This document shows positions 12,451 to 62,346 of a stretch of 64,000 nt of DNA, in pieces (within the stretch, counting starts at the first letter, position 1; every line of letters begins with the position of its first letter). Under the pieces are notes generated by a model. That model had not been told where the DNA came from. It saw nothing but the letters and a program-made list of their open reading frames with translations, and did not search any database. Source of the stretch: an uncultured Syntrophaceae bacterium (GTDB lineage Bacteria > Desulfobacterota > Syntrophia > Syntrophales > UBA2192); assembly GCA_964585095.1 (NCBI GenBank), contig CAZPCN010000011.1, forward strand, positions 9,367 through 73,366. Direction: 5' to 3'. A program made the position numbers and the translations under genes.

Positions 12451-13041
12451 GTGGCGGCGGCGAAACGATTCGAGGAGAGGAAATGCCGGTACTTCCGCAA
12501 GCCCGGCAAGGCGAACACGAGCGACGTGCTCGACGCCTCGGCCGCCCGTGCGGCGGAGCTGGGCATCGGGACCGTCATCGTACCGAGCGTGAGCGGAAGG
12601 ACGGCGCTGGCTGCCCGGGAAGCGTTCGGGAAGGGGGCGCGAATCATCGCGGTCACCCACGTGGCGGGCTTCGAGGGGCCCGACATCCAGGAGATGGGGG
12701 AGGCCGCGCGGAAGCGCCTCGAGTCGGCGGGCGTCCGCGTCTTCACGGGCCAGCACGCCTTCGGAGGCGTGGGGCGCGCGGTGCGCAACAAGCTCGGCAC
12801 CTACCAGGTCGATGAGATCATGGCCTACACGCTGCGGACGTTCGGGCAGGGAACGAAGGTGGCCGTCGAGGTCGCCCTCATGGCGGCCGATGCGGGGCTG
12901 GTCCGGACCGACGAGGACGTCATCGCGCTGGGGGGGACGTACGCGGGGGCGGACACGGCTCTCGTCATCGGGCCCGCCAACAGCGCCCGTTTCTTCGACC
13001 TGAAGGTCCGCGAGGTGATCTGCAAGCCGAGGAACTTTTAA
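12451..13041 (+). CDS. stand-alone pyruvate-kinase C-terminal (alpha/beta) domain-like protein
   Basis: GTG start with AAAGGAG 6 nt upstream. The 196-aa product (VIVPSVSGRTALAAREAF, GADTALVIGPAN) resembles proteins annotated as pyruvate kinase alpha/beta domain-containing. The function is unknown. Confidence 0.55.
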   Translation: MAAAKRFEERKCRYFRKPGKANTSDVLDASAARAAELGIGTVIVPSVSGRTALAAREAFGKGARIIAVTHVAGFEGPDIQEMGEAARKRLESAGVRVFTGQHAFGGVGRAVRNKLGTYQVDEIMAYTLRTFGQGTKVAVEVALMAADAGLVRTDEDVIALGGTYAGADTALVIGPANSARFFDLKVREVICKPRNF

Positions 13042-22849: not shown

Positions 22850-23380
22850 TCAGGTCAGCTTCCCCAGCTCTTCCGAAAAGAGATCGAACATCGGCTTCCC
22901 GAACAGCACGAATCGCACCCGTTCGATCTCGGGGTGGTCCTTCAGGTACTCGACGGCCGTCCGGAGGGCGATGCGGGCGGCGTCGTTCAGCGGGTAGCCG
23001 TAGGCGCCCGTGCTGATGGCCGGGAAGGAGACGCTCTTCAGGCCCCTCTTCGAGGCGAGCTTCAGGCTTTCGAGGTAGGCGCTCTTCAGCAGCCCCGCCT
23101 CGTTCCGGTTCCCGCCGTTCCACACCGGCCCCACCGTGTGGATGACGTATCGGGCCTTGAGGTTGCCGCCCGTGGTGATCACCGCCTGTCCCGTGGGGCA
23201 GCGGCCGATCGCCCGGCACTCCTCCATGATGGCCGGGCCCCCGGCGCGGTGGATCGCACCGTCGACGCCGCCTCCCCCGCGCAGGCCCGAGTTGGCCGCG
23301 TTCACGATGGCGTCGGTTTCCTCCTTCGTGATGTCGCCCTCGACGACGGCCAGCGTGGCATTCCCTATCTTGACCTCCAT
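22850..23380 (-). CDS. macro-domain protein (O-acetyl-ADP-ribose deacetylase-like)
   Basis: The start is the ATG at 23380. The product carries GDITKEETDAIVNAANSGLRGGGGVDGAIHRAGG and SFPAISTGAYGYP. Confidence 0.85.
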   Translation of the reverse strand: MEVKIGNATLAVVEGDITKEETDAIVNAANSGLRGGGGVDGAIHRAGGPAIMEECRAIGRCPTGQAVITTGGNLKARYVIHTVGPVWNGGNRNEAGLLKSAYLESLKLASKRGLKSVSFPAISTGAYGYPLNDAARIALRTAVEYLKDHPEIERVRFVLFGKPMFDLFSEELGKLT

Positions 23381-23396: not shown

Positions 23397-23431
23397 TGAA
23401 CCCTATACCCTGTACCCGAACCCCTATACCC
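23397..23431 (-). repeat. GGGTNNN heptad array, 5 units on the minus strand (gggtata ggggttc gggtaca gggtata gggttca)
   Basis: Read directly. The first unit covers the last two codons and the TAG stop of the phosphoglycerate mutase. The array ends 16 nt before the macro-domain ATG. Confidence 0.9.
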
Positions 23432-25004
23432 CCTCTTTGACGGCATAGCCGTCGCCATACACCAGCATCCGGTAGGTCTTCTCGATACGGTCCCAGTTCT
23501 CCTCGCGGTCCATGGACCAGTAGCGGCCGATGACGGAGACAACGCGGCCAAGCCCCAGCTCCGCGCACTTGTCCTCGATCTGCTTGACGTAGTTGGCCCC
23601 GCTCTCGGGCATCTCGCCGCGGCGCCCGAGCATGGCGTGGATGAAAAGCTCGGGGACGCCCTCCTTCTTTGCCATCTCCATCAGGGCGAGGAGATGGTTC
23701 ATCATGCCGTGGGAGCTGAAGAACGAGACGATCCCCATCAGGTGCAGGGCCGTCCCGCGCCGGATGGCCTCGGCCATGGTCCGCCGGTAGGCCTCGTTCG
23801 AGAAGAAGGCCCCGCTTTCGATCGCCCGGTCGATCTTCAGGCGGTCGGAGAACACGCGCCTGCCCGCGCCGATGTGGAGGTGCCCGGCTTCGGAATTTCC
23901 CACGGTGCCCGCCGGGAGCCCGACGGCCTCGCCCGAGGCGGCGAGCACGGAAAAGGGGAGGGAGGCGAGCAACCCGTCCATGACGGGGGTAAAGGCCTTT
24001 GCGATCAGGTTGCCGGCCTTCTCGGGGTTGTAGCCCCAGCCGTCGAGGATGAGCACGACGAGCCGGCGGAAGGGTGCCGGCGGTCTCTTCACCAGCAGGG
24101 ATTTCCCCTCCATGCGCTTCGGCACGGCGATGCCGTACAGCTCCAGGATCGTGGGCGCCACGTCGGTGAGTTCGCCCTCCTTGTGCAGCGCGAGGGGCTC
24201 CCCGGTTCCGGCAAGGACGAAGGGCACGGGGCTCGAGGTGTGTCCCGTGTCGACGGCCCCGTCGGGGTAGAGCCACCGCTCCACGGTGCCGTGGTCGGCC
24301 GTGACGAGCACGGGCACCCCCGCCCTGCGGGCTTCGTCGACGACGCGGCCCAACGCCCGGTCCACGGCCTCGACGGCGCGTATCACGGCGGCCTCGTTTT
24401 CGATGTGACCCACCACGTCCACGTTGGCGAAGTTGGCGAGGATGAAGTCGTGGCGGCCCTCGCGAATCTCGCGGATGGCGGCCCCCGCCACTTCGTCCAC
24501 GGACATCTCCGGCGCCTCGTCGAAGAGCTTCACGTCCTTGCGCGTGGGCACCACGATACGGTCTTCGTCGGGGTAGGGCGCCTCGCGCTTGCCGTTGAGG
24601 AAGTAGGTGACGTGAAACGCCTTCTCCGCCTCGGTGATCTTCACCTGCCGGATCCCGCTGCGGGAGAGGACCTCGCTCAGGGTGTCCTCCAACTCCTCTT
24701 CGGGCGGGAAGGCCACGTCGACCTGCAGCTCCCGGGAATATTCGATCATCGTCGCATAGTGCAGGCCGAGAGGGCCGGCCGTGGGGAACTCGCGGAACTC
24801 GTCCTCCGTGAGGCTGCGCGAGAGCTCCACCTCGCGCTCGCCGCGGATGTTGTAGAAAATGACCGCGTCTCCCTTCCCGATCCTCCCCGCGGGCCTGCCC
24901 GAGGGGTCCACCAGGACCAGGGGGTTGAGCGTCTCGTCGTCCTCGCCGCGGCGGTATGCGTCCCGCACCGCCCGGGACATGGCGTTCGATTTCGGTGTCG
25001 GCAT
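23424..25004 (-). CDS. gpmI: 2,3-bisphosphoglycerate-independent phosphoglycerate mutase, circularly permuted
   Basis: The start is the ATG at 25004 (AAAGGA upstream). Residues 1-306 match the canonical C-terminal part (IFYNIRGERE, ITEAEKAFHVTYF, ANVDVVGH, TADHG, GKSLLVK). Residues 315-526 match the canonical N-terminal part (VVLILDGWG, GLPAGTVGNSEAGHLHIGAGR, GRYWSMDREENWDR). Confidence 0.85.
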   Translation of the reverse strand: MPTPKSNAMSRAVRDAYRRGEDDETLNPLVLVDPSGRPAGRIGKGDAVIFYNIRGEREVELSRSLTEDEFREFPTAGPLGLHYATMIEYSRELQVDVAFPPEEELEDTLSEVLSRSGIRQVKITEAEKAFHVTYFLNGKREAPYPDEDRIVVPTRKDVKLFDEAPEMSVDEVAGAAIREIREGRHDFILANFANVDVVGHIENEAAVIRAVEAVDRALGRVVDEARRAGVPVLVTADHGTVERWLYPDGAVDTGHTSSPVPFVLAGTGEPLALHKEGELTDVAPTILELYGIAVPKRMEGKSLLVKRPPAPFRRLVVLILDGWGYNPEKAGNLIAKAFTPVMDGLLASLPFSVLAASGEAVGLPAGTVGNSEAGHLHIGAGRRVFSDRLKIDRAIESGAFFSNEAYRRTMAEAIRRGTALHLMGIVSFFSSHGMMNHLLALMEMAKKEGVPELFIHAMLGRRGEMPESGANYVKQIEDKCAELGLGRVVSVIGRYWSMDREENWDRIEKTYRMLVYGDGYAVKEGV

Positions 25005-25157: not shown

Positions 25158-25520
25158 ATGCTCGAAAAAGCGGGAATTTATCACTGCATGAGGAAGTCGG
25201 CCTGGGAGAAAACCCAGGAAGAGATATTCAAGGAACGGGCCGAGGTTCTCGGCCGCGCGGGGGAAGCGCTGGCGGCCGCGCTTTCCGAGGTGGACAGGAT
25301 CGACCGGCTGATCGTCGAGAGCGTGCGGACGGCCGGAGAGAGGCCCGGACTGGAGGCCCTGGCGGAGATCAACGGCGAAATCCGGCTCTACAACCGGGCC
25401 CGGGCATATGCCGAGTTGCGCTACTACTACCTCATCGTGACCCGGGAAGCCATGGGAATACGGCGCCACAAGGCCGTCGAGGAAATCTACCGGATCCCTC
25501 CGAAGAGAAAATATCTTTGA
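25158..25520 (+). CDS. hypothetical protein (120 aa, predicted helical)
   Basis: The ORF has genome-typical codon bias. I recognise no family. The SD is weak. Confidence 0.45.
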   Translation: MLEKAGIYHCMRKSAWEKTQEEIFKERAEVLGRAGEALAAALSEVDRIDRLIVESVRTAGERPGLEALAEINGEIRLYNRARAYAELRYYYLIVTREAMGIRRHKAVEEIYRIPPKRKYL

Positions 25521-34580: not shown

Positions 34581-34609
34581 TTGATTTCAAAAGGCACCTG
34601 GGCTATAAA
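34581..34609 (+). promoter_or_regulatory. candidate sigma70 promoter of pgk
   Basis: TTGATT (34581-34586), 17 nt spacer, TATAAA (34604-34609). Confidence 0.45.
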
Positions 34610-34679
34610 ATACCGGCCCGTCGACCTCGAGAAAAAAGGGGGTGATGATGCCCCCAACGATATCGGTAGAGGTGAAAGC

Positions 34680-35864
34680 ATGAAATATATCGATGAGATG
34701 GATCTGAAGGGGAAACGGGTGCTGTTTCGGTTCGATTTCAACGTCCCCCTCGACGCCAATCAGAACATCACCGACGACACGCGCATCCGGTCCGTCCTGC
34801 CCACCATCAATTACGCCCTCGACGAAAACGCCAAGGTAATCATCGCTTCACACCTCGGCAGGCCGAAGGGCAAGGTCATCGACAAGATGAGCCTGGCCCC
34901 CGTGGCGAAGCGCCTCTCGCGCCTGCTCGGCAAGAACGTGACCCTGACGAAGGAAGTCGTGGGCCCCGAGGTGAAGAAGGCCGTCGACGCGATGAAGCCC
35001 GGCGACATCGTCATGCTGGAGAACCTCCGGTTCGATCCCCGGGAAGAGAAGAACGACGAGGAGTTCGCGAAGGGACTGGCGGAGCTCACCGACGTCTACA
35101 TCGACGACGCCTTCGGCAATGCCCACCGCAGCCACGCCTCCAACGTGGGGATCACCCGGTTCGTAAAGACCTGCGGGGCAGGCTTTCTGATGAAGAAAGA
35201 GCTGACCTACTTCAACAAGGCCCTTGAGAAGCCCGCGCGTCCCCTGGTCGCCATCGTCGGGGGTTCGAAGGTGTCGGGCAAGCTCGAGGCCCTGGCCAAC
35301 CTGATCAACCGGGTCAACAAGATCGTCATCGGCGGCGGCATGGCCTTCACCTTCCTCAAGGCGCAGGGCGTCGAGGTCGGCAAGTCCATCGTCGAGCCCG
35401 AGCTCGTCGACAAGGCCCGGGAGGTCCTGGAGACGGCGAAGAAGCTGGGCGTGAAGGTCTACCTGCCCGTCGACTGCGTCATCGCCGAGAACCGGGACGC
35501 CGAAGCCGAGACCAAGATCGTCCCCGTGCAGGAGATCAACCCGCAGTGGATGGGGCTCGACATCGGGCCGGCCACGATCACCCTGTTCACGGAGGCCCTG
35601 AGCAACGCGAAGACGATCGTCTGGAACGGGCCCATGGGCGTCTTCGAGATCGACGCCTTCAGCCGGGGCACCTCGGCGCTGGCCCACAGCGTGGCGAACT
35701 CCTACGCGCTCTCCATCGTGGGGGGCGGGGACACGGACGTGGCCATCGACAAGGCGGGCGAGCGGGATAACATGTCCTACATCTCCACGGGCGGCGGCGC
35801 TTTCCTGGAGCTGCTCGAGGGCAAGGAGCTGCCCGCCGTGAAGGCCCTCAAGACCTGCAAGTGA
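34680..35864 (+). CDS. pgk: phosphoglycerate kinase
   Basis: The ATG at 34680 gives [25 protein letters not shown], with ASHLGRPKG and GGGDT. It is 394 aa. Confidence 0.9.
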
Positions 35865-35881
35865 TTCCGTGAACGATCGAA

Positions 35882-35917
35882 GGGGAGCAGAAGAGGCCCT
35901 TCTGCTCCCCTTTTTTT
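35882..35917 (+). terminator. intrinsic terminator after pgk
   Basis: The perfect 12-bp stem ggggagcagaag/cttctgctcccc has a 5-nt loop and a T7 run. Confidence 0.85.
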
Positions 35918-36045
35918 ATCTGCTCCGGAAGGAACAGATGAGTGCATCATCCACGGTCCGAGAGGGAGTAACCATGAAACAGGAGAGCATGAAGCATTCT
36001 CCGTGTTCTCATCGGCCGGATTTTCATGTAAGATTCAGCGCAGCG

Positions 36046-36789
36046 ATGAATAGAAATATCAAACTGGTTATCGAATACGACGGGACGGCTTACAACGGCT
36101 GGCAGCGCCAGGCCGACGTCCTCACGATCCAGCAGGTGATGGAGGACACCCTCTCGCGGATCGTCAACGACCGCGTGGTGCTCGTCGCCTCGAGCCGCAC
36201 GGACACGGGCGTTCACGCCCTGAACCAGGTGGCGAACTTCCGGACGTCCACGAAGCTGCCCCTGCGCAACCTCCACCTGGGGGTCAACAGCCTGCTGCCG
36301 CCCGACATCGTGGTGAAGGAGATCGGCGAGGTGCCCTGGGAGTTTCATTCGCAGTTCAATGCCCTGGGCAAGGTCTACCGGTACCGGATCTTCAACCACC
36401 CCGTGCGGACGGCGCTCGAGCGCGACCGGTGCTGGCACGTGCGCAAGCCCCTCGATCTCGAGGCCATGCAGCGCGCGGCGCGGCATGTCCCGGGCACGCA
36501 CGACTTCAACTCCTTCTGCGCGGCGCAATGCGAGGTGGAAGACCGGGTGCGGACCGTAACGGACGCGCGCTTCGAGCGGGAAGAGGGGGGGATGATCGTC
36601 TTCCGGATCGAGGCCGACGGGTTTCTGCGTCACATGGTGCGCAACATCGTGGGGACCCTCGTCGACATCGGCAGGGGGGCGATTCCCGAAGAGGACATGA
36701 CCCGCATCATCGAGGCGAAGGACCGCCGCCTGGCGGGCCAGGCAGCCCCGGCCAGGGGCCTGTGCCTCGTGGAGGTGAGATACGGATGA
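36046..36789 (+). CDS. truA: tRNA pseudouridine(38-40) synthase
   Basis: It carries MNRNIKLVIEYDGTAYNGWQRQ and SRTDTGVHALNQV. The upstream in-frame ATG at 35974 has a better SD, but the stretch between is low-GC and does not look like coding sequence. The start is therefore uncertain. Confidence 0.8.
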   Translation: MNRNIKLVIEYDGTAYNGWQRQADVLTIQQVMEDTLSRIVNDRVVLVASSRTDTGVHALNQVANFRTSTKLPLRNLHLGVNSLLPPDIVVKEIGEVPWEFHSQFNALGKVYRYRIFNHPVRTALERDRCWHVRKPLDLEAMQRAARHVPGTHDFNSFCAAQCEVEDRVRTVTDARFEREEGGMIVFRIEADGFLRHMVRNIVGTLVDIGRGAIPEEDMTRIIEAKDRRLAGQAAPARGLCLVEVRYG

Positions 36790-58524: not shown

Positions 58525-60921
58525 ATGAAACGAAATGCCGTGAACACGACACTCGGCGTTGCCCTGTCGGCGTTCTGCGTAAGTTCGGCGCAGGCGCAGG
58601 ATGTCCTGCCTCGCCCTGAACAACCCTTCAAGGGTCACATCGGCCGCAAGGCCAAGGACTCGATCAAGGACTTCCCCCAGGAGGTGGCCGCCCCGAAAGG
58701 AGCGCCCAACGTGCTGTTGATTCTGACCGACGACGTGGGCTTCGGGGCATCCAGCACATTCGGAGGCCCCATCGAGACGAAGACGTTCGACCGCCTGGCA
58801 GCCAACGGTCTTCGTTACACTCAGTTCCACACGACGGCGCTTTCCTCGCCGACGCGTGCAGCGCTGTTATCCGGCCGCAACCACCACTCGGCCGCCACCG
58901 GGGTGATCATGGAACTGGCCAGCGGCTACCCGGGATACAACTCCCTCATGCCCAAGAGCGCAGGCACCTTTGCCGAGGTGCTCAAGCAGAGCGGATGGAA
59001 CACGGCCTGGTACGGCAAGAATCACAACGTACCTGATTGGCATGGGAGCCAGGCAGGCCCCTACGATCTGTGGCCCACGGGGCTCGGGTTCGAGTACTTC
59101 TACGGCTTCATCGGAGGCGACGCCAACCAGTGGGCCCCGGCCCTCTATGAAAACATCAAACCCATCGAGCCCCCCCACGACGCCAAGGACTACCACTTGG
59201 ACAAGGATCTGGCCGACAAATGTATCGAGCGAATCCGTATGCTGCACTCCGTCGCACCCCACAAACCCTGGGTGCAATACTACGCGCCTGGTACGGCCCA
59301 TGCTCCGCATCATGCTCCCAAAGATTGGATAGAGAAATACAAGGGTAAATTCGACCAGGGATGGGACAAGGTGCGAGGGGAAACGCTGGCGCGCCAGAAG
59401 AAGATGGGCATTGTCCCGCAGAACACGAGGCTCACGGAACGGACAAAAGGTATTCCCTCCTGGGACAGCCTGGGCGCTGACCAGAAGAAGGTGTTTGCCC
59501 GCATGATGGAGGTCTATGCGGGTGCGCTATCTCATGCCGACCACCAGATCGGTCGCATCCTGGATGCCATTGCGGAACTGGGAGAACTGGACAACACGCT
59601 GGTGATTTACATCCAGGGCGACAATGGCGCCAGCGCCGAGGGCAGCCCGCAAGGTTTGCTCAACGAAATGACCTACTTCAACGGAGTTCCCGAGGACTTC
59701 AAGGAAGTGGCGCGCCGCATGGAGGAACTTGGCGGGCCCATGACGTACAATCACTACCCGATCGGCTGGGCACACGCGATGGACACGCCCTTCCAGTGGA
59801 CAAAGCAGGTGGCCTCACACTTCGGCGGCACTCGCAACGGGCTTGTGATCTCCTGGCCTGTTCGCATCAAGGACAAGGGGGGCATCCGTACCCAGTTCCA
59901 TCACGTGATTGACATCGCACCGACGATCCTCGAAGCCTGCGGGATCCGGTTTCCCGCGGAGCTGAATGGTGTTCCCCAGAAACCGATCGAAGGCGTGAGC
60001 ATGGTCTATTCGTTCGACGACGCCAAAGCGCCCTCGAAACGCCGCACACAGTATTTCGAGATGTTCGCCAACCGTGCGATCTACAGCGACGGCTGGGTGG
60101 CCACCACGACGCCGCCGGTAACTCCCTGGGATCTGTTCGGAAAAGTCCCGGACGTGGATGACTACAGGTGGGAGCTGTACCATGTGGCTGAGGATTTCAG
60201 CCAGGCTGTAAACCTTGCCGACAAGGAACCGGCCAGACTGCGTGCCTTGCAGGACCTTTTCTGGGTCGAGGCGGCAAAGTACGACGTGATTCCCATCGAC
60301 AACAGTCGTACAGAGCGGTTCGATGTGGCTAACCGGCCAAGCCTCACCCGTGGACGGTCGGTATTCACCTACTTCCCCGGACAGGTACGCATCCCCGAGG
60401 GGGCGGCGCCTGATCTCAAGAACAAATCGTTCAAAATCGCGGCTGACGTGGTCATCCCAAAGGACGGCGCAGAGGGCATCCTTGCCACCCAGGGCGGACG
60501 GTTTAACGGATGGGGGATTTACCTGCTCCAGGGCAGGCCGGTGTTCCACTACAACCTTGCCGGGGTACAACGATTTACCATCGCAGCCAAGGACAAGCTG
60601 ACACCCGGCGAGCACGTCATTGTTGTGGACTTCAAATATGACGGTGGTCTCGGTAAAGGTGCGGCGGCGACGATCTCGGTGGACGATAAGCCGGTCGCCC
60701 AAGGCCGGGTCGAGCGCACCGTTCCGTTCCGCATGTCCATCGACGAAACCCTGGATATCGGGGAGGACACCGGCACGCCTGTCAGCGAGGACTACCGTGT
60801 GCCCTTCAAGTTCACGGGCAAACTCAAGCGCGTCCTCATCGGGCTGACCGACCACAAACTTACCCCTGAAGATGAAGAGGAGATCAAACGCGCCAAGGCC
60901 TTGATCGGTGTAGCACAGTAA
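58525..60921 (+). CDS. Ser-type (periplasmic) arylsulfatase-family enzyme, 798 aa
   Basis: It has signal peptide MKRNAVNTTLGVALSAFCVSSAQA, the metal site LILTDDVGFG, and the formylglycine motif S-S-P-T-R (58843-58857) followed by AALLSGRN. A C-terminal extension of about 250 aa is present. Confidence 0.85.
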   Translation: MKRNAVNTTLGVALSAFCVSSAQAQDVLPRPEQPFKGHIGRKAKDSIKDFPQEVAAPKGAPNVLLILTDDVGFGASSTFGGPIETKTFDRLAANGLRYTQFHTTALSSPTRAALLSGRNHHSAATGVIMELASGYPGYNSLMPKSAGTFAEVLKQSGWNTAWYGKNHNVPDWHGSQAGPYDLWPTGLGFEYFYGFIGGDANQWAPALYENIKPIEPPHDAKDYHLDKDLADKCIERIRMLHSVAPHKPWVQYYAPGTAHAPHHAPKDWIEKYKGKFDQGWDKVRGETLARQKKMGIVPQNTRLTERTKGIPSWDSLGADQKKVFARMMEVYAGALSHADHQIGRILDAIAELGELDNTLVIYIQGDNGASAEGSPQGLLNEMTYFNGVPEDFKEVARRMEELGGPMTYNHYPIGWAHAMDTPFQWTKQVASHFGGTRNGLVISWPVRIKDKGGIRTQFHHVIDIAPTILEACGIRFPAELNGVPQKPIEGVSMVYSFDDAKAPSKRRTQYFEMFANRAIYSDGWVATTTPPVTPWDLFGKVPDVDDYRWELYHVAEDFSQAVNLADKEPARLRALQDLFWVEAAKYDVIPIDNSRTERFDVANRPSLTRGRSVFTYFPGQVRIPEGAAPDLKNKSFKIAADVVIPKDGAEGILATQGGRFNGWGIYLLQGRPVFHYNLAGVQRFTIAAKDKLTPGEHVIVVDFKYDGGLGKGAAATISVDDKPVAQGRVERTVPFRMSIDETLDIGEDTGTPVSEDYRVPFKFTGKLKRVLIGLTDHKLTPEDEEEIKRAKALIGVAQ

Positions 60922-61032
60922 CGACAGCATGGAGAATCAGTGGTCTGAGCCGCGGGCAACACCCACTGCGAAGCACGCTGCTGGTCATCTTTTCCCGGCT
61001 ATGGGCAAGCGATCACCTGAGATGGGTAACGA

Positions 61033-62346
61033 ATGACGAGGTCGCTCGAAAACAGCCATCCGATCAGCATTCCCCCGGGCATCCACGTCGTGGCCAAACC
61101 GATCGGCCCGGCCTGCAACCTCGACTGCGAGTACTGCTTCTATCTGGAAAAGCAGGCCCTGTTTCCCGCGGGTGGGCAATACCGGATGAATGACACGGTC
61201 CTCCAGGCATTCATTGCGGGCTACATCTCCTCGCAGCCCGTGCCGGTTGTCGAGTTCGTCTGGCAGGGCGGGGAGCCGACGCTGCTGGGGATCGACTTTT
61301 TCAGGCGGGTCGTGGAGCTTCAGAAGCCCTTCGCGAAGGGCAGGACGATCGCGAACGCGCTGCAGACCAACGGGACGCTCCTCAACGACGAGTGGTGCCG
61401 GTTTCTGAAAAAGCACAACTTCATGGTCGGGGTGAGCCTCGACGGCCCGAAGGAAATCCACGACCGATACCGGAAGGACCGCAAGGGAAGGGACACTTTC
61501 GATCGGGTCATGCGCGGGCTGAAGCTCTTGCAGAAGCACAGGGTCGACCACAACGTGCTGGCCTGCGTGGCCCGTGACACGGCGGACAGGCCGCTGGAGG
61601 TGTACCGCTTCCTGAAGAATGCCGGCGTGGAATTCATCCAGTTCACCCCGATCGTCGAGCGCGTACCCGATCCGCAAATCGCAGGTCTTGGCCTGCGATT
61701 GGCCGACCCCGCGGTACTGGACAGCCTGGAGGAGCAGGGGGAGGTCACGCCCTGGTCCGTCGAACCCGAGGCCTGGGGCGATTTTCTCATGGGCGTCTTC
61801 GAGGAGTGGGTCCGCAACGACGTGGGCAGGGTCTTCGTCATGAACTTCGAGTGGGCCCTGAATGCCTGGATCGGAAACCCCTCGCCCGTGTGCGTCCATG
61901 CGAATCAGTGCGGCCGCTCGCTCGTGATCGAGCACAACGGCGATGTCTACGCCTGCGACCACTGCGTCTACCCGCAGTACCGGCTCGGCAACATCCTGAG
62001 CGATGCGCTGCCCCGGATGGCGGAGCGATCCGTTCAGTCGGGCTTTGGAGCGTGCAAGGAAACAGCCCTGCCGCGCTGGTGCAGGGAGTGCGAGGTGCTG
62101 GCCGCCTGCCGCGGCGGGTGCCCCAAGCACCGCTTCCTGCAAACGCACCACGGCGAGCCGGGGCTACACTACCTTTGCGCCGGATACAGAAAATTCTTCC
62201 TGCACATCCGGAAGTACCTGCACGTCATGGCGCAGTTGCTGGAACATGACCAGCCCGTCAGCCTCGTCATGGAGGCGGTCAAGGGGCCCCTGGTCATCAC
62301 GCGGGGCGCCGGCGGCGACCCGGCGAAGACAAAAATCATTCGCTGA
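61033..62346 (+). CDS. anaerobic sulfatase-maturating enzyme (radical SAM/SPASM)
   Basis: It carries CNLDCEYCFY (CX3CX2C), a GGEPTL motif and C-terminal SPASM cysteines (CDHCVYP, CRECEVLAACRGGCPKHR). Confidence 0.85.
   Translation: MTRSLENSHPISIPPGIHVVAKPIGPACNLDCEYCFYLEKQALFPAGGQYRMNDTVLQAFIAGYISSQPVPVVEFVWQGGEPTLLGIDFFRRVVELQKPFAKGRTIANALQTNGTLLNDEWCRFLKKHNFMVGVSLDGPKEIHDRYRKDRKGRDTFDRVMRGLKLLQKHRVDHNVLACVARDTADRPLEVYRFLKNAGVEFIQFTPIVERVPDPQIAGLGLRLADPAVLDSLEEQGEVTPWSVEPEAWGDFLMGVFEEWVRNDVGRVFVMNFEWALNAWIGNPSPVCVHANQCGRSLVIEHNGDVYACDHCVYPQYRLGNILSDALPRMAERSVQSGFGACKETALPRWCRECEVLAACRGGCPKHRFLQTHHGEPGLHYLCAGYRKFFLHIRKYLHVMAQLLEHDQPVSLVMEAVKGPLVITRGAGGDPAKTKIIR

Follow-up and report, generated by a model that had tools for sequence, protein, structure and literature searches.

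Natural circular permutation in the cofactor-independent phosphoglycerate mutase family of Syntrophales and other anaerobic bacteria

Introduction

Can a reading frame that carries the parts of a central metabolic enzyme in a changed order still encode that enzyme? The question is raised by a gene in a 64,000-nucleotide stretch of DNA from an uncultured Syntrophaceae bacterium (GenBank assembly GCA_964585095.1, contig CAZPCN010000011.1, positions 9,367 to 73,366), the whole of which is called the window here. The gene lies on the minus strand at 23424..25004 and its product resembles cofactor-independent phosphoglycerate mutase (iPGM; GpmI/GpmM). Canonical iPGMs are monomeric and their active site is formed by domain closure (PMC5382265, PMC8113725). 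An initial reading of the letters alone, without database searches (the sequence-only reading), had proposed that the old C-terminus is fused by a short linker, RPPAPFRR, to the old N-terminus and that the new termini open near canonical position 220. The iPGM motifs it quoted were all found at the residues given, and its placing of the linker at 24063-24086 is exact. On comparison with known sequences and profiles the protein is almost certainly a genuine natural circular permutant of the iPGM family. What reaction it catalyzes is a separate matter and is weighed below.

Order of the domains

Comparison by phmmer with all sequences of the Protein Data Bank (PDB) aligned residues 315-522 of the protein to residues 6-213 of the Geobacillus stearothermophilus iPGM 1EJJ without a gap (184 bits), and residues 12-306 to residues 219-511 of the same chain (234 bits). 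All 11 distinct iPGM sequences with solved structures match in this way, as two swapped stretches, and a solved structure with the permuted order was found nowhere among the PDB matches. The profile searches give the same picture. Pfam Metalloenzyme (PF01676, 197.5 bits) and iPGM_N (PF06415, 186.6 bits) are each split in two stretches, so that both domains of an iPGM, metalloenzyme (alkaline-phosphatase-like) and transferase, are present, but the canonical order of N-terminal phosphatase part, transferase and C-terminal phosphatase part is not. Precomputed Pfam matches on permuted relatives run iPGM_N, Metalloenzyme, iPGM_N. TIGR01307, too, is matched twice, residues 7-304 corresponding to profile positions 211-504, and its score of 482.1 bits lies above the cut-off of 330.65, but only as the sum of two partial stretches. 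The classical test for a permutation used a canonical iPGM (P0124) joined to itself: against this duplicated reference the protein aligned in one colinear high-scoring segment pair from residues 12-526 to 222-734 (44% identity, 8 gaps, 420 bits), whereas against the single copy it fell into two segment pairs of 217 and 213 bits.

The proposed fusion is thus borne out by sequence, profile and duplicated-reference alignments alike; the Pfam domains stand in swapped order, and there is no colinear alignment to a single-copy canonical iPGM. The new termini fall at about canonical positions 214-219, close to the position proposed, and the cut site is the loop between canonical residues ~213 and 219, which leaves the first 11 and the last 4 residues as new tails. 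The parts of the gene, from its 5' end, are as follows.

23424..25004, minus strand: complete coding sequence of the permuted iPGM, 526 amino acids and a stop codon, from the open reading frame and its translation; homologues of 524-532 amino acids cover 97-100% of it.
24972..25004, minus strand: new N-terminal tail, residues 1-11 (MPTPKSNAMSR); canonical iPGM alignments start at residue 12, and the predicted local distance difference test score (pLDDT) of an AlphaFold2 (AF2) model is 66 for residues 1-10.
24705..24971, minus strand: transferase-domain segment B, residues 12-100 (canonical ~219-309), with R54 and R57 (R261 and R264), from the 1EJJ phmmer alignment and column statistics.
24087..24704, minus strand: canonical C-terminal part of the phosphatase (alkaline-phosphatase-like) domain, residues 101-306 (canonical ~310-511), from the Pfam Metalloenzyme match at residues 99-292 and the 1EJJ alignment; it holds K128, D196, H200, D237, H238 and H255, which are invariant in 76 permuted relatives.
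24063..24086, minus strand: junction linker RPPAPFRR, residues 307-314, which connects the old C-terminus with the old N-terminus and fills the gap between the two blocks that align.
23850..24062, minus strand: canonical N-terminal part of the phosphatase domain, residues 315-385 (canonical 6-76), within the gap-free alignment to 1EJJ 6-213; it holds D321 (D12) and the nucleophile S371 (S62; nucleotides 23892-23894), and D321, S371 and H375 are invariant.
23439..23849, minus strand: transferase-domain segment A, residues 386-522 (canonical 77-213), from Pfam iPGM_N at residues 391-519 (profile positions 1-129) and the 1EJJ alignment; it holds H432 (H123), R462 (R153), R494 (R185) and R500 (R191), and two altered motifs, SFFSSHG (nucleotides 23706-23726) and GRRGE (nucleotides 23613-23627).
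23424..23438, minus strand: new C-terminal tail KEGV and the stop codon, from the translation.

The boundary between segment B and the phosphatase domain is approximate, as it was set at the point, residue 99, where Pfam Metalloenzyme begins to match. The coding sequence runs from 25004 down to 23424, on a strand that the sequence-only reading had not given, and the protein begins MPTPKSNAM. The open reading frame continues in frame upstream of the ATG at 25004 as far as 25646, and no iPGM similarity was found in this extension. The start was placed at 25004 for this reason, and because homologues 524-532 amino acids long match the protein over its whole length and an AAAGGA ribosome-binding site lies 6 nucleotides 5' of the ATG. 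At the other end, the C-terminus of all permuted groups lies 3-12 residues past an ALVxGxG motif.

Architecture and fold

Along the chain the order is transferase segment B (12-100), C-terminal phosphatase part (101-306), linker (307-314), N-terminal phosphatase part (315-385) and transferase segment A (386-522). The alkaline-phosphatase-like domain is contiguous, since the linker runs into the usually N-terminal strand and the Ser-nucleophile loop of canonical residues 6-76, which belong to the same domain, and the transferase domain is built from both ends of the chain; in canonical iPGM it is the transferase domain that is inserted into the phosphatase domain. Both inter-domain hinges, that is both crossings of the chain, are kept. 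The AF2 model, made from 31 family members, has a mean pLDDT of 86.4 and a predicted template modelling score of 0.84, and the linker of the window protein is modelled at 94-97 although its sequence and length vary among homologues. In a Foldseek search the best PDB matches of the model were the iPGM structures 1EJJ, 1O99 and 1O98, with ~300 columns and a TM score of 0.51 in a sequential alignment; the match is confined to these columns because a sequential aligner meets a permuted protein. The fold and the two-hinge domain closure have probably been retained, with the new chain ends in a surface loop of the transferase domain. Through the permutation, host domain and inserted domain have traded places in an enzyme of central metabolism that relies on hinge closure for catalysis, and the protein may serve as a natural test of how chain connectivity affects domain motion.

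Natural circular permutants are known among transaldolases, some DNA methyltransferases and the swaposins. The iPGM case shares with natural permutants in general the swapped homologous segments, a fold that is presumably retained and a fit to the model of duplication, fusion and truncation. It differs in that a two-domain enzyme has been cut within its inserted domain, so that the continuous and the split domain are exchanged. Full-text literature searches, to which most subscription journals were closed, found no published description of a permuted iPGM, just as the sequence-only reading had known of none. The permuted iPGM therefore appears to be new as a recognized feature, although the sequences themselves are already public and annotated.

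Distribution of the permuted order

A changed order seen in a single assembly could reflect a chimera, in which an ordinary gene has been mis-joined from its two halves, or two partial copies side by side that are read as one frame, and the unusual order itself is all that speaks for this. The chance of such an artefact is negligible, as the same order and breakpoint recur in hundreds of independent assemblies, including the finished chromosomes of Syntrophus aciditrophicus SB and S. buswellii DM-2. The reading frame continues unbroken through the junction, whose position is conserved and which the model predicts with confidence, and the window has a single iPGM locus. Neither the in-frame upstream extension nor either flank holds an iPGM relic or second copy. 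A mis-join or a tandem duplication at the junction, which the sequence-only reading had named among the findings that would overturn it, is excluded as the origin of the reading frame by the order kept in complete genomes and by the relic-free flanks. Tandem-duplicate intermediates were not found among the homologues; the long matches of 600-2349 amino acids are canonical iPGMs with extra domains.

Among the 120 best homologue clusters, made at 90% identity, identity to the window protein is 60-91%; the complete ones are colinear with it over 97-100% and four gene fragments cover 62-84%. They include the finished S. aciditrophicus SB genome, where the locus lies on CP000252 (2054715-2056313). 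In a scan with a single genome for each GTDB species, 141 genomes were found to encode a relative, and the best 80 of these are all colinear over essentially the full length. The labels of these 80 are Syntrophales, Syntrophaceae, Smithellaceae, Smithella, Syntrophus and 'Deltaproteobacteria'; the S. buswellii DM-2 chromosome is among them, as are several closed chromosomes of metagenome-assembled genomes (MAGs). Farther out, a search of 1.84 billion representatives at 50% identity returned, among its best 150 matches, 135 canonical iPGMs together with 11 full-length proteins and 1 fragment that are permuted at the same breakpoint. Outside Syntrophales, the names found in the permuted clusters include Candidatus Desulfofervidus auxilii and a 'Pseudomonadota' MAG. 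A search with one such cluster, P0136, added at least 119 further clusters, all permuted at the same site (119 of 119 Anaerolineae-type clusters checked); the few that are named are Anaerolinea sp., Anaerolineaceae and Chloroflexi, and some lie on contigs of up to 2.75 Mb. Groups of a third kind (P0130, P0132, P0135 and P0241) are permuted and otherwise canonical-looking. The P0135 group consists of six clusters, and its next-best relatives are canonical iPGMs at ~50% identity. The breakpoint is the same in every permuted cluster examined, and the permuted order is conserved in hundreds of anaerobic bacteria of at least two phyla.

The form is thus common in public annotated genomes, so that it is real and, as sequence data, not new. 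Most of the public sequences are annotated as iPGM. The names given by NCBI to relatives are 'phosphoglycerate mutase (2,3-diphosphoglycerate-independent)', 'alkaline phosphatase family protein' and 'hypothetical protein', the latter two being among the newer ones. It is possible that the inconsistent names are caused by partial profile matches on a permuted chain, and if so phosphoglycerate mutase may be miscounted in metabolic reconstructions of syntrophic and Anaerolineae MAGs.

Origin of the permutation

To place the permuted proteins among canonical ones, their sequences were cut at the junction, put back into canonical order and aligned with canonical iPGMs, and neighbour-joining trees were built, the second with 200 bootstraps. 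The clade of the window protein, with the Syntrophales, Anaerolineae-type, Desulfofervidus-type and other members, was monophyletic in 200 of 200 bootstraps and sits on a distinct long branch. A group of all permuted proteins was never recovered, and the placement of the four canonical-looking permuted groups had less than 25% support. Pairwise identities are ~51% both to canonical and to other permuted sequences and are uninformative on the origin. An identical breakpoint is compatible with one ancient event as well as with repeated hits on a permissive loop. The canonical-looking permuted groups were not recovered with the clade of the window protein, and the chain may have been cut at this surface loop in two or more independent events. 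The most likely route to the permutation is a tandem duplication with in-frame fusion, after which the outer halves were lost.

Catalytic residues

The residues of the G. stearothermophilus enzyme correspond to those of the window protein as follows: in the N-terminal phosphatase part and segment A, D12 to D321, S62 to S371, H66 to H375, H123 to H432, R153 to R462, R185 to R494 and R191 to R500; in segment B and the C-terminal phosphatase part, R261 to R54, R264 to R57, K336 to K128, D403 to D196, H407 to H200, D444 to D237, H445 to H238 and H462 to H255. All 15 equivalents are kept in 76 of 76 aligned relatives of the permuted clade with an SSHG motif, in both phyla; the one departure is His in place of R153 in the divergent member P0165. 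No exception occurs at the Ser nucleophile and the binuclear metal ligands (D321, S371, D196, H200, D237, H238 and H255), a set as given for the Caenorhabditis elegans iPGM (PMC5382265).

The substrate site is less uniform. Its residues, which we take from the work on the 1EJJ structure to be H123, R153, D154, R185, R191, R261, R264 and K336, are retained in seven of eight cases, D154 being replaced by G463 and, beside it, D151 by G460. Asp154 presumably contacts the glycerate moiety in the 1EJJ complex. The motif D151-G152-R153-D154 is near-invariant in canonical iPGMs, where its residues are kept in 125, 124, 119 and 123 of 126 cluster representatives, respectively, and the canonical-looking permuted groups keep both DGRD and GVHS. 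In the Syntrophales type, D192 is also replaced by Glu. The expectation that all metal and catalytic motifs are intact therefore holds for the metal ligands, the Ser nucleophile and the Arg, Lys and His substrate residues, and fails for the D-G-R-D and GGVHS motifs, which are altered, with loss of D151 and D154. Since the catalytic residues are invariant and the altered motifs are themselves conserved, the alignments indicate strong purifying selection on the complete catalytic apparatus.

Comparison with related families

Compared with canonical GpmI/GpmM (1EJJ, 1O98, 2IFY, 4MY4; TIGR01307), the window protein has the same Metalloenzyme and iPGM_N domains with ~42-48% identity per half, the Ser nucleophile, the seven metal ligands, the Arg, Lys and His residues and the two inter-domain crossings. 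It differs in a chain permuted at canonical 214-218, in which the phosphatase domain is contiguous and the transferase domain split, and in the motif changes from D-G-R-D to G-R-R-G-E and from GGVHS to FSSHG. The canonical-looking permuted groups P0130, P0132, P0135 and P0241 share its breakpoint and order, but have the canonical motifs and higher TIGR01307 scores: a canonical protein reaches 691 bits, P0135 593, and the window protein and an Anaerolineae member 482-493, all above the cut-off.

The archaeal-type mutase ApgM (TIGR00306; PhosphMutase and Metalloenzyme domains) belongs to the same alkaline-phosphatase superfamily and has the same annotated reaction, but its cap domain differs. 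Assignment of the window protein to ApgM was rejected, as it scores 40.1 bits against a TIGR00306 cut-off of 320, over residues 170-268 only, and has no PF10143 match.

Genomic context

Immediately downstream of the permuted gene, at a distance of 43 nucleotides and on the same strand, lies a gene with GGAGG before its ATG that is a probable operon partner.

22850..23380, minus strand: macro-domain gene (O-acetyl-ADP-ribose deacetylase family), with Pfam Macro at 157 bits and NF001664 at 223.5 bits against a cut-off of 200.

Upstream and divergent are a 120-amino-acid open reading frame without a family match, then pcm and an nlpD-like gene. The locus is conserved: in 80 Syntrophales loci the macro-domain gene follows in 72, and pcm and nlpD are present in 78 and 76, respectively, and S. 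aciditrophicus SB has the same arrangement. The 120-amino-acid frame (25158-25520, plus strand, between the iPGM gene and pcm) has no Pfam or NCBIfam match and was found by tblastn in 32 of the 80 loci; in S. aciditrophicus SB a gene of 132 amino acids is called at the same place.

The presence of pgk, which had been taken as a sign that the permuted gene is functional, was confirmed (34581-35864). It is no evidence of function, however, as it lies ~9.6 kb from the permuted gene and ApgM-type mutases also occur in related genomes; it is followed by truA, not tpiA. Other glycolytic genes were not found among the open reading frames of the window that were scanned, apart from one frame with only the C-terminal domain of pyruvate kinase, and the remainder are ordinary housekeeping genes.

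In a TBLASTN screen with a 100-bit threshold, S. aciditrophicus SB had no cofactor-dependent phosphoglycerate mutase, one bacterial-type iPGM hit and three archaeal-type (ApgM) hits (PMC2964296, Table S1). That paper does not mention permutation, and its sole bacterial-type iPGM hit in this organism must be the permuted gene.

Outside Syntrophales the surroundings differ. Four Anaerolineae genomes have a conserved cluster of one HAD gene or a HAD-HAD pair, the permuted iPGM gene, in some cases a further HAD gene, an ApgM-type mutase gene and one or two genes for PRK-family kinases. These kinases are ~400 amino acids long with an unmatched N-terminal region of ~180 amino acids, and the ApgM is above its own equivalog cut-off (562 bits against 468). 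Two different iPGM-type mutases thus stand in one operon. Sugar-acid genes of the LacI, UxaE, ADH and GFO types flank three of the four loci (L087, 4505-11276; L089; L090; L091) and an RpiR regulator gene flanks two. In the P0135 group the permuted gene overlaps an upstream pgi by 4 nucleotides (L083, 4556-7626), and no other permuted member was found in clearly glycolytic surroundings; this pgi-iPGM operon makes the permuted architecture compatible with a glycolytic role.

Of the remaining permuted genes, that of the Ca. Desulfofervidus type (L081 and L082, 1-6044) overlaps by 44 nucleotides the 3' end of an open reading frame of 2100-2400 amino acids, which carries a PPDK_N domain and faint P-loop kinase matches. 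P0165 follows an ATP-binding cassette (ABC) transporter, and P0297 adjoins a glycerophosphodiesterase gene and an ABC transporter. The transporters beside the permuted genes of L085 (2299-7572) and L086 (7666-13038) are of the same build, with a solute-binding protein, a fused permease of 549-618 amino acids and an ATPase; the L085 ATPase has a TOBE_2 domain, and L086 also has a glycerophosphodiesterase gene.

Function of the permuted enzyme

The conserved nucleophile and ligands make it very probable that the protein is an active metal-dependent phosphomutase that works via a phosphoserine intermediate. It is rather likely, though much less firmly so, that its physiological substrate is phosphoglycerate (3-phosphoglycerate to 2-phosphoglycerate). 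Phosphoglycerate mutase function is suggested by the retention of the Arg, Lys and His residues that we take to bind the substrate (P0165 at R153 apart) and by the TIGR01307 score above the cut-off. It also seems to be favoured by the occurrence of the permuted gene as the only bacterial-type iPGM in S. aciditrophicus and by the pgi operon of P0135. In the mechanism that these features would allow, Ser371, activated by Mn or Zn, takes the phosphate from 3-phosphoglycerate and gives it back to O2 of the reoriented glycerate, and the interconversion of 3- and 2-phosphoglycerate in gluconeogenesis or glycolysis would most likely have been kept. Permutation and function taken together, a working permuted phosphoglycerate mutase is, on the sequence evidence, the probable reading of the gene, with a good deal of room for doubt.

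Several findings weigh against this reading. Two near-invariant aspartates, D151 and D154, are lost in a well-supported clade (200 of 200 bootstraps). At the D-G-R-D motif the window family reads G460-R-R-G463-E464, which is invariant in 31 Syntrophales-type sequences, and the D154 position is Gly or Ser across the whole clade, the Anaerolineae type reading D-G-R-S. GGVHS around H123 has become FSSHG, and D263 is Glu throughout the clade. The context in the window (macro-domain gene, pcm and nlpD) is not glycolytic. S. aciditrophicus has three ApgM-type genes (PMC2964296) and an ApgM gene adjoins the permuted gene in Anaerolineae, and because such mutases coexist with it the permuted enzyme is not needed to explain phosphoglycerate mutase activity. 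A weak point on the same side is the NF003897 score of 411.6 bits against a cut-off of 862, which the canonical P0124 also fails with 614 bits.

These findings would fit a permuted iPGM-like enzyme with a changed function, in which the phosphoserine and binuclear-metal chemistry is applied to another phosphoester, the enzyme being a mutase or phosphatase that acts on some other phosphorylated acid or sugar, and ApgM carries out the glycolytic step. This reading is less likely than not, but has to be taken seriously. In addition to the lost aspartates, it draws on the co-ordination of D263E, D192E and the change from GGVHS to FSSHG, invariant within the Syntrophales family, on the monophyly of the clade, and on the three ApgM-type genes of S. 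aciditrophicus. From the contexts it takes the Anaerolineae cluster of HAD, permuted iPGM, ApgM and PRK-like kinase genes, with an RpiR regulator or sugar-acid genes flanking three of four loci, the members that follow an ABC transporter or adjoin a glycerophosphodiesterase gene, and the macro-domain partner conserved in Syntrophales. On the other hand, the phosphate and carboxylate contacts that we take to be made by R153, R185, R191, R261, R264, K336 and H123 are conserved, with the one divergent member at R153 as the exception, the TIGR01307 cut-off is passed, and E464, which adjoins G463, may replace D154. The contexts also differ between lineages and suggest no single alternative substrate, and a conserved gene neighbourhood in a single order can reflect descent, not function. 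Tentatively, the Syntrophales, Anaerolineae and Desulfofervidus members, defined by the permuted order together with the loss of D154, D263E and SSHG, could form a separate and previously unrecognized family of the iPGM superfamily with a new substrate or role, glycolysis being left to ApgM; this, too, is less likely than not. With D151 and D154 lost and ApgM present alongside, the permuted family is a concrete candidate for a new specificity. Far less probable still is an inactive relic, or a pseudo-enzyme kept for a non-catalytic role. The missing aspartates and the presence of other mutases in related genomes would fit a relic, but within the clade that carries these changes no substitution is seen, in either phylum, at any of the seven metal ligands or the nucleophile. 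The other conserved residues checked are equally constant, save for R153, which is His in one divergent member, and the Syntrophales family shows no variation in the altered motifs either.

Other features of the window

A few further observations concern genes elsewhere in the window. The pgk gene is followed directly by a gene for a TruA-like pseudouridine synthase (34581-36789, plus strand), and the pgk open reading frame as listed has ~36 extra N-terminal residues before the PGK domain, so that its true start is probably further downstream. The frame that matches only PK_C of pyruvate kinase encodes 196 amino acids (12451-13041, plus strand) and lies downstream of feoB and a DtxR/FeoA-type regulator gene. 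At 58525-62346, on the plus strand, a sulfatase of 798 amino acids is followed by a radical SAM/SPASM protein, and the pair looks like a sulfatase with its anaerobic sulfatase-maturating enzyme.

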